DNA of 32,000 bases from Geobacter sulfurreducens PCA. Lineage in GTDB: Bacteria > Desulfobacterota > Desulfuromonadia > Geobacterales > Geobacteraceae. Both the position numbers and the translations under genes were made by a program. Position 1 is the stretch's first letter, and each line of letters starts with the position of its first letter. Shown here one piece after another: positions 25,501 through 26,418 of the stretch. Below the pieces are notes generated by a model. The model searched no databases. It saw only the letters and a list, made by a program, of their open reading frames with translations, and had not been told where the DNA came from. The stretch spans positions 1,260,001 through 1,292,000 of the forward strand of contig NC_002939.5 of NCBI RefSeq assembly GCF_000007985.2. Reading direction: 5' to 3'.

Positions 25501-26418
25501 ATGGGCGCTGCCATTGACATAACCTTTGTGAGGCTCTTGCTCTCCGGGGTGATCCGGGGGAGCGTACGTGATCCGTACGCCCTGTACCGGTGTCGTGAAA
25601 ACTTTCAGGAGTCGCTCCTGCGTCTTTCTGGTTGCGGCGGTGAAGGGTGCCCCCGCTGCCGGGAAGGAAGTTGCGCCTATGGTAGCGCGTTTCTCCAACC
25701 GCTCGGCAACGATCCGACCGCGGTCAAGCGTCATCAAAAGCCGCCGGTTCCCTTTGCCTTTTCGTTTCCGGTTCTGGCAGATCAATCGGAGTTCGAGGTC
25801 GGGCTTACCCTCGTGGGGACGGCAATTAACCATGCCCCCCTTTTCGTGAAGTCTTTTGTCGGGATGCTGGAGGGTCTCGGCCTCAACGGTGACATAGCCG
25901 AACTTGTGCGGGTGGAGTCTGCAGGGTATTTCGGCGAACGGAGCCCCTGTCTGGTTGGAGAGGACACAAGCGCAGGCGCGGAACCCACAATCCTCTCGGG
26001 GGCCGGACTTGTGGAAAGCCGCATCCTGGGAGAAACCCTGGCGCTTTCCTTCAATACCCCCCTGAGGATCATCCAGGATGGTGCTCCGTTGCGGAGCTTT
26101 TCTTTTTCCGTATTTGCCCGGGCGCTCATGAGACGGGTATCGGCCCTTGCGTCTGCCTATTGCGACCGTGAGATCAATGATGACTTCAGATGGCTTGCGC
26201 AACTGAGCGCCGATGTGAAACCCGCCAGTCAGGCCATGCGATGGATCGACTGGCGGGAGGCGGACCGGCGCGGGCGCTATGGAGGGCTTGCCGGTCAGGC
26301 TATCGTTGCGGTGAGCGACGTGGAGGAGTTTATCCCCTATCTGCTGGTGGGAGAGTATCTTGGCGTGGGGAAAGGGGCTCCCTTCGGCATGGGGCATTTC
26401 CATCTGCACGGCTGTTGA
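25501..26418 (+). CDS. Orphan Cas6/RAMP-like protein (resembles the family formerly called DUF2276); conservatively a hypothetical protein
   Basis: ATG at 25501 behind AGGAGCGGAG. Cys cluster CGGEGCPRCREGSCAYGSAF. KPPVPFAFSFPV. SFNTPLRI. C-terminal glycine-rich loop YLGVGKGAPFGMGHFHL as in RAMP/Cas6 proteins. Codon usage is visibly less GC3-biased than in the neighbours. The family assignment is from memory of motifs only. Confidence 0.55.
   Translation: MGAAIDITFVRLLLSGVIRGSVRDPYALYRCRENFQESLLRLSGCGGEGCPRCREGSCAYGSAFLQPLGNDPTAVKRHQKPPVPFAFSFPVLADQSEFEVGLTLVGTAINHAPLFVKSFVGMLEGLGLNGDIAELVRVESAGYFGERSPCLVGEDTSAGAEPTILSGAGLVESRILGETLALSFNTPLRIIQDGAPLRSFSFSVFARALMRRVSALASAYCDREINDDFRWLAQLSADVKPASQAMRWIDWREADRRGRYGGLAGQAIVAVSDVEEFIPYLLVGEYLGVGKGAPFGMGHFHLHGC

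Follow-up and report, generated by a model that had tools for sequence, protein, structure and literature searches.

A stand-alone Cas6-like protein at a fixed chromosomal position in Geobacteraceae, probably repurposed for an RNA-related role

Cas6 enzymes are known as dedicated maturases of CRISPR RNA (crRNA) and have been engineered as RNA-processing tools. Here we analyze a Cas6-like gene that stands between the succinate/fumarate oxidoreductase operon frdCAB and ftsH on the chromosome of Geobacter sulfurreducens PCA, within a stretch of 32,000 nucleotides (NC_002939.5, positions 1,260,001 to 1,292,000) which we refer to as the window; coordinates below count from its first letter. The product is a stand-alone Cas6/RAMP-fold protein of the former DUF2276 family. 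Its orthologues keep their place among housekeeping genes throughout the Geobacteraceae, lack cas or CRISPR neighbours, are under purifying selection and have exchanged motifs of their CRISPR-linked relatives for motifs of their own. These findings suggest that the Cas6 of this clade has probably been repurposed for an RNA-related role. The family assignment is already known, and annotation pipelines name orthologues Cas6. The family-wide orphan clade with its fixed housekeeping position and replaced canonical motifs appears to be undescribed in the searchable literature: searches on orphan, solo or stand-alone Cas6, on Cas6 together with Geobacter and on GSU1179 found no description of it.

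Family, fold and chromosomal position

A preliminary description of this DNA had placed the protein in the former DUF2276 family and proposed profile searches and structure prediction as a check; both bear it out. Pfam PF10040 (CRISPR_Cas6, the former DUF2276) matches residues 182-299 with 57 bits against a cut-off of 25, and the PADLOC Cas6 model PDLC01477 matches across residues 7-303 (E=2.2e-59), while the equivalog cas_cas6 TIGR01877 is not reached (14.9 bits, cut-off 58.65). DUF2276/PF10040 has been described as Cas6-like, with the loop consensus GhGxxxxxGhG (PMC3936711). For every homologue, the 98%-identical P0001 among them, precomputed annotation gives a second domain, AF_1859_N (PF27225); the Pfam scan of the window protein gave PF10040 only, and the Pfam copy used possibly lacks the PF27225 model. 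An AlphaFold2 model built on 20 homologues (predicted local distance difference test score 87, predicted template modelling score 0.88) has beta-alpha-beta-beta-alpha-beta elements in both halves, a tandem RRM fold. When this model was compared with the PDB by Foldseek, ranks 1-34 were exclusively Cas6 (best E=1.6e-11), among them the Cas6 domain of Marinomonas mediterranea MMB-1 (6dd5), Thermus thermophilus Cas6A/B and proteins of S. thermophilus, Sulfolobus solfataricus and P. furiosus as well as type IV Cas6. A sequence-profile search of the PDB gave 6dd5 as its only significant match, via the glycine-rich loop (E=0.011).

The open frame extends from 25432 to 26418 on the plus strand, and the ATG at 25501 yields a product of 305 amino acids. 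This ATG is the likely start because close orthologues begin at the same methionine (MGA[IV]IDITF), which also has its equivalent in the gene calls of three close relatives. The gene has its own Shine-Dalgarno sequence, as the preliminary description had it, and the leader block CTGCTGTAGGAGCGG.GATGGG is kept in the relatives L085 and L087. Judging by position alone, the gene would be GSU1179; frdCAB corresponds to GSU1176-GSU1178 in G. sulfurreducens numbering, and the gene order in the window agrees (PMC2700814).

Relatives of the protein are numerous. A hidden Markov model search of 1.84 billion representatives returned 6407 of them at E<=1e-3, 766 at E<=1e-30, and a word-indexed search returned 26 clusters, all with PF27225 and PF10040 and, where named, all from Geobacteraceae. 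Pattern scanning of one genome per GTDB species identified at least 98 loci, of which 80 were kept for locus analysis. Titles of 79 of these name Geobacter, Geomonas, Oryzomonas, Pelotalea, Geomobilimonas, Geomesophilobacter or a loosely assigned Desulfuromonadales or deltaproteobacterial metagenome-assembled genome (MAG), the sole exception being L070, a MAG titled Pedobacter sp. Full-length orthologous open reading frames (ORFs) were obtained for 72 of the 80 loci; to the remaining eight our crude ORF picker assigned none.

According to tblastn with the window neighbours, the gene follows directly after frdCAB, a second Sdh/Frd-type pair or tgt, with ftsH and malQ directly downstream in most loci; nearly all of the 80 have it directly after frdCAB/tgt, directly before ftsH, or both. 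In the complete Geobacter sp. DSM 9736 genome the gene is placed in the same way. Where one flank is replaced, the substitutes are a polysaccharide deacetylase/GT2/radical-SAM set, heptosyltransferase-thrS, FdhD-MobA, HlyD/ABC-2 or PilZ with an HD-domain protein, and none is a cas gene. Ten loci (L009, L010, L012, L018, L021, L025, L044, L058, L074 and L080) form one subclade with a different upstream pair of Sdh/Frd-type flavoprotein and iron-sulfur protein, only 34-36% and 22-26% identical to window FrdA and FrdB, respectively. The link to a succinate/fumarate oxidoreductase operon thus persists across operon types.

The preliminary description had found no repeat-spacer array and no other cas gene in the window, and this holds there and in the 80 orthologous loci. 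The window contains no spaced direct repeats, tandem array, tRNA or Rfam match, Rfam CRISPR repeat families included, and no Cas family was recognized by Pfam among the 29 other predicted genes and ORFs scanned (23 with other domains, 6 without any). In the 80 loci, a k-mer array finder detected no CRISPR-like array within 10 kb, and type III and I-C Cas proteins from the outgroup loci had no tblastn match. A PADLOC scan of 156 neighbour representatives gave no Cas family among the best 25 of 130 matched families; it did give restriction/modification, Dpd and similar matches in a few loci. The orthologues are likewise not consistently tied to any other described system.

Non-CRISPR defence-type genes were detected by PADLOC 3-10 kb away in L038, L039, L052 and a few other loci. 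These are DpdF, type I/II methyltransferases, mad2/3/8 and PDC-S candidates, present as single or few members and not recurring across the orthologue family.

Against three close relatives, the ratio of nonsynonymous to synonymous substitution (dN/dS) is 0.17-0.25 for the Cas6-like gene and 0.00-0.10 for frdCAB, ftsH and malQ. The gene is under purifying selection, though loosely. Across the family, mean pairwise distances of the Cas6-like proteins reach 0.60-0.65, compared to 0.27 for FtsH and 0.13 for FrdA, and they correlate with those of both neighbours (p=0.001 in either case), the Mantel rho being 0.59 for FtsH and 0.28 for FrdA. The correlated distances and the fixed position are in line with vertical co-inheritance with the neighbours rather than with recent transfer.

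An excess of T-ending codons had raised the possibility of a different origin or low expression in the preliminary description. The bias exists, yet it is modest: the GC content at third codon positions (GC3) is the lowest among 24 genes (0.66; others 0.69-0.84) and the T content at these positions (T3) the highest (0.23; others 0.08-0.21), with overall GC (0.60) the same as in the window (0.608). A different origin does not agree with the same chromosomal position across Geobacteraceae and a divergence that tracks FtsH and FrdA, and recent horizontal transfer was rejected on these grounds. T-rich third positions fit low expression or relaxed selection (dN/dS ~0.2) better. A phage or anti-CRISPR origin is unsupported, as no viral relative of the protein was found in IMG/VR.

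The extreme GC3 and T3 values, the fastest evolution in the block and the loss of family motifs described below could also mark a decaying, functionless remnant of a lost CRISPR-Cas locus. We consider this very improbable. Most loci carry full-length ORFs, about 100 clusters (50% identity) share the derived motif, the new clade-specific motifs are 93-100% conserved, and the dN/dS values, which reflect purifying selection, led us to reject pseudogene or relic status.

Motifs kept, lost and gained

The Cys cluster, the KPPVPFAF segment (residues 80-87) and the C-terminal glycine-rich loop named in the preliminary description are all present in the 305-residue product. We compared motifs in an alignment of 73 sequences of the Geobacter clade with 106 sequences of more distant family members, referred to as the outgroup. 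Common to both groups are TP[LM][RK], R207, R212, Y220, G262, G265 and the glycine-rich loop. P187 is present in 98% of the clade and 100% of the outgroup, and R211 and R212 in 100% of the clade. The C-terminal YLGVGKGAPFGMGHFHL fits the Cas6 loop consensus GhGxxxxxGhG and includes a Lys; G290, K291, G296 and G298 are invariant in the clade, and the outgroup has the same three glycines at 100% with K291 replaced by Arg in 92%.

Other motifs occur only in the outgroup. These are LP.[YF].GST[LF][HR]G in helix alpha1 (G29 100%, S30 99%, position 33 His in 68% or Arg in 31%), RIRR after TPL (R191 96%, R192 94%) and the RYSxR loop plus six further residues (R254 100%, S256 98%, R258 95%). In place of GST[LF][HR]G the clade has DPYALF..[RK]..F with one residue deleted and without a conserved His at the corresponding point of alpha1, in place of RIRR variable residues, and in place of the RYSxR loop a deletion. 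What the clade has gained is A-[VL]-[RK]-R-H-Q-K-P-P-L-P-F, with R77 in 93%, H78 in 79% (Tyr in 16%), Q79 in 98%, K80 in 97%, P81 in 100%, P84 in 98% and F85 in 98% of its sequences. At this position the outgroup has a four-residue gap followed by [K]QD[IV][VP]NPY, and the clade gained a four-residue insertion together with the KRHQKPPLPF motif. Two indels separate clade and outgroup perfectly. Among the best 150 library representatives, 100 carry the [HYF]QKP derived motif, and none of the 100 also has the canonical motifs.

The catalytic His of characterized Cas6 proteins is found in helix alpha1 of the N-terminal domain or just ahead of it, with a Lys of the next loop contributing (PMC3652601). 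Since GST[LF][HR]G holds the only conserved His/Arg of the outgroup at this usual position, the clade has lost the place most likely to be catalytic in its family. The RNase label is not established, because no residue can be assigned as catalytic. Some Cas6 proteins have no such His and depend on basic residues instead, and their kinetics are very slow and chaperone-like (PMC3652601). H78 and K80 are candidate replacement catalytic residues, and nuclease activity may have been retained.

The Cys cluster is conserved in the clade at C50 (80%), C53 (90%) and C58 (94%). It is also found in the CRISPR-linked relatives P0024, P0027, P0028 and P0030 and is absent from a Firmicutes subgroup. Metal binding by this cluster is a prediction from its sequence. 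One possibility is that the Cas6 fold has been reused for something beyond sequence-specific RNA recognition, for example as a protein-protein adaptor, as a metal or redox sensor built on the Cys cluster or as a DNA-binding factor. Such a role would be consistent with the loss of the canonical motif in the N-terminal domain along with that of the RYSxR loop, with the three to four conserved Cys residues and the proline-rich KRHQKPPLPF segment, and with evolution faster than that of the neighbours (0.60-0.65 versus 0.13-0.27). However, the loop Gly and Lys and R211/R212 are 100% conserved, the glycine-rich loop of Cas6 marking the RNA-binding and active-site face (PMC3652601), and the Cys cluster is not new, as CRISPR-linked relatives have it. 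We regard a role of this kind as unlikely.

CRISPR-linked relatives and possible roles

Profile searching reached the Cas6 of Paenibacillus, Salipaludibacillus, Pectinatus and others, which are named Cas6 by NCBI. The contigs of five more distant relatives were read, and on four of them the Cas6 gene adjoins cas genes, the better-resolved loci being of type III style. P0030 (L083) stands before csx1-cas10-csm2-RAMPs-...-csx16-cas2-cas1, P0031 (L081) follows cas10 and a RAMP gene beside an I-C module, P0027 stands before a csx1-type gene, and P0025 adjoins a RAMP gene; the context of P0028, at a contig end, is ambiguous. The Cas6 proteins of type III loci (for example P0030 and P0031) have the two-domain Pfam architecture that is precomputed for the homologues in the clade, AF_1859_N (PF27225) and PF10040, are of similar length (about 300 amino acids) and share TPLR, RR.S and the glycine-rich loop with the clade, while the Cys cluster occurs in a subgroup of them. 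They adjoin cas10, csm2-5, csx1, csx16 and cas1-cas2 (PMC3936711), whereas the gene of the Geobacter clade has neither cas genes nor CRISPR arrays beside it. They also keep GST[LF][HR]G, RIRR and RYSxR, which are missing from the clade, where KRHQKPPLPF is found instead.

Among proteins of known structure, the best match is the Cas6-RT-Cas1 protein of M. mediterranea MMB-1 (6dd5). The glycine-rich loops align, but the Cas6 domain of this protein is fused to reverse transcriptase (RT)-Cas1 in a type III-B system, and identity is 10-11% at a TM-score of ~0.5. T. thermophilus Cas6A/Cas6B (4c8y, 4c97, 4c9d) have the tandem RRM fold in common with the clade, with target-normalised TM-scores of 0.63-0.70. 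Like other stand-alone Cas6 they are free-standing and recognize CRISPR repeat hairpins. Their catalysis on these repeats depends on His (the PDB matches include an H37A mutant), and the clade has no conserved alpha1 His. S. solfataricus Cas6 (3zfv, 4ill) is His-less, uses a Lys/Arg network and is almost an RNA chaperone (PMC3652601), which is the behaviour that we propose for the clade; it differs in being CRISPR-dedicated and dimeric and in binding unstructured repeats.

The clade protein could also be a working Cas6 that acts in trans, as a crRNA maturase for distant arrays or for type III modules without their own cas6. A hairpin followed by an ATTGAAAC tail, as in the CRISPR3 repeat of G. 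metallireducens, is the usual look of a Cas6 substrate and the kind that a stand-alone Cas6 would cut. Other family members are cas-linked, the clade keeps its glycine-rich loop and many basic residues, a stand-alone Cas6 can serve several effector complexes (PMC3652601), and the small CRISPR3 array of G. metallireducens has a 37-nt hairpin repeat ending in ATTGAAAC (PMC2700814). Our searches gave no copy of this CRISPR3 repeat, or of a published Geobacter palindromic multicopy element, in the window, and no match to the repeat in a metagenome scan. The clade holds one fixed housekeeping position in at least 98 species, though CRISPR content varies between sister Geobacter species; G. sulfurreducens has CRISPR1 and CRISPR2 and G. 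metallireducens CRISPR3 only (PMC2700814). The 80 loci have no array or cas gene within 10 kb, and the clade no longer has motifs whose conservation among CRISPR-linked members is 95-100%. Furthermore, the I-E and I-U/I-G systems of G. sulfurreducens presumably encode their own processing subunits. Given the lost motifs, the evidence speaks more for a role outside CRISPR than for the processing of a distant array in trans, which we consider improbable.

The reading that we prefer, and to which we give about an even chance, is that of a Cas6 domesticated to bind, and perhaps to cleave, a non-CRISPR RNA encoded on the chromosome, and not that of a crRNA maturase. A more specific version is somewhat less probable than that. 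It holds that Cas6 was domesticated at the root of the Geobacteraceae as a CRISPR-independent RNA factor with a rebuilt active-site region, KRHQKPPLPF for GST[LF][HR]G, and a chromosomal transcript as its target. In the preferred reading, an ancestor of the Geobacteraceae would have captured a Cys-cluster-bearing AF_1859_N + PF10040 Cas6 from a cas locus of type III style, which would then have been fixed as a solitary gene between frdCAB/tgt and ftsH and inherited vertically since. GST[LF][HR]G and the RYSxR loop were lost, and the new conserved KRHQKPPLPF stands next to the usual catalytic position. Retained are the tandem RRM (RAMP) fold together with the glycine-rich loop and the residues R76/R77, K80, R/K189, R207, R211, R212 and K291, and because fold, loop and conserved Arg/Lys are still there, we infer that a specific RNA, most likely a short hairpin, is still bound via the glycine-rich-loop face. 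This ligand would be a chromosomally encoded non-CRISPR transcript, and the protein may be a single-site RNA-binding or processing factor, either a slow endonuclease or a chaperone or stabiliser.

One speculative candidate for the ligand is a 7-bp hairpin in the 5' untranslated region (5'-UTR) of ftsH. Four close relatives share it, L088 with one compensatory pair change. The hairpin that other Geobacter loci have at this place is unrelated in sequence, and none is obvious in Geomonas. The whole spacer between the Cas6-like gene and ftsH is not unusually stable (z = -1.7).

Several points weigh against domestication. The ftsH 5'-UTR hairpin is the only nearby conserved hairpin and its sequence is not kept beyond the closest relatives; no ligand emerged from the window, which has no recurrent hairpins, repeat-like element or ATTGAAA[CG] repeat tails. 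Motif loss alone is no proof of a change of substrate, because some genuine Cas6 proteins, such as that of S. solfataricus, have no catalytic His (PMC3652601). The NCBI pipeline already calls an orthologue "Cas6". The PADLOC neighbour result covers the best 25 of the 130 matched families, and the survey was one of loci and not of whole genomes, so that Cas6-less arrays may co-occur elsewhere in the genome.

If domestication is true, the clade would be a clean, natural example of how a protein that processes CRISPR RNA became a component of host gene expression across a whole bacterial family, with at least 98 species, about 100 sequence clusters, purifying selection and replaced signature motifs. 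A further implication would be that Geobacter, a model for extracellular electron transfer, has a step of RNA processing or RNA binding that has gone unrecognised. CRISPR inventories of Geobacteraceae genomes may be misled by the pipeline label "CRISPR system precrRNA processing endoribonuclease Cas6". The question lends itself to direct testing, as genetics, transposon sequencing and RNA sequencing are routine in G. sulfurreducens.

Window features and minor observations

Table 1. Features of the Cas6-like gene and its surroundings, in window coordinates.
Feature	Coordinates	Strand	Evidence or remark
frdC	21849-22511		upstream neighbour
frdA	22588-24435		upstream neighbour
frdB	24435-25196		upstream neighbour
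frdB intrinsic terminator, 11-bp stem, 3-nt loop and T-run	25239..25273 (stem-loop 25239-25263)	+	invariant in L085, L087, L088
Shine-Dalgarno AGGAG, 5 nt upstream of ATG	25491..25495	+	read from sequence
Cas6-like coding sequence (305 aa), orphan of the AF_1859_N + PF10040 (ex-DUF2276) Cas6 family	25501..26418	+	ORF, PF10040, PADLOC, AlphaFold2, Foldseek, dN/dS
Cys cluster C45-x4-C50-x2-C53-x4-C58 (CGGEGCPRCREGSC), putative metal-binding knuckle inserted in N-terminal RRM domain	25633..25674	+	clade conservation
Clade-specific motif K76-R-H-Q-K-P-P-V-P-F85, directly before strand beta2	25726..25755	+	alignment
C-terminal RRM domain (PF10040, residues 182-299) with TPLR (186-189) and RR.S (211-214)	26044..26397	+	Pfam
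Glycine-rich loop G288-V-G-K-G-A-P-F-G-M-G298, hallmark Cas6 RNA-binding loop	26362..26394	+	consensus and alignment
ftsH promoter-like TTGCAT-N16-TACGAAT	26492-26520	+	kept in four close relatives
ftsH 5'-UTR 7-bp hairpin GCTCTCG-CCCTA-CGAGAGC, just upstream of Shine-Dalgarno sequence	26537-26555	+	kept in four close relatives
ftsH	26585-28438		downstream neighbour
malQ	28698-30206		downstream neighbour

The genes around this block are of the housekeeping kind and include a class II aminoacyl-tRNA synthetase, sod, DJ-1, an HlyD/ABC/FtsX exporter and ptsP, and further CAP, DUF3047, DUF255, murJ, ogt, mazG and tgt. A pyridoxal phosphate (PLP) enzyme of Cys/Met metabolism follows malQ. The terminator that the preliminary description had placed behind frdB was found and stands between frdCAB and the Cas6-like gene. 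The 230-nt spacer from this terminator to the start of the gene is poorly conserved and in part missing from L088, which rules it out as a conserved RNA element. Its sole conserved island is the GAAGGAATT block at 25350-25358 (+), which does not vary among four relatives, one of them L088 with most of the spacer missing. This block may serve the Cas6-like gene as a promoter or operator.

Window FrdA is 93-94% identical to that of Geobacter sensu stricto genomes. Compared with L085 (7116-8963), frdA is near-identical at synonymous sites, with a synonymous divergence (dS) of 0.017, while frdC, frdB, the Cas6-like gene, ftsH and malQ all have dS values of 0.22-0.43. The low value suggests a recent recombination patch over frdA.

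Two further observations concern the region downstream of ftsH. A conserved ORF of 54 amino acids (METIKTALFETLVDSAVKNDDGTY...HGYIIIY) lies between ftsH and malQ at 28443-28607 (-), convergent with ftsH; it is called as a gene in L085, L087 and L093 too and has no Pfam match on record. Past malQ, a minus-strand ORF of 571 amino acids without Pfam match (30154-31869) overlaps a plus-strand ORF of 428 amino acids (30334-31620). The latter corresponds to the Cys_Met_Meta_PP gene annotated there in L085, L087 and L093 and is therefore taken as the real gene.

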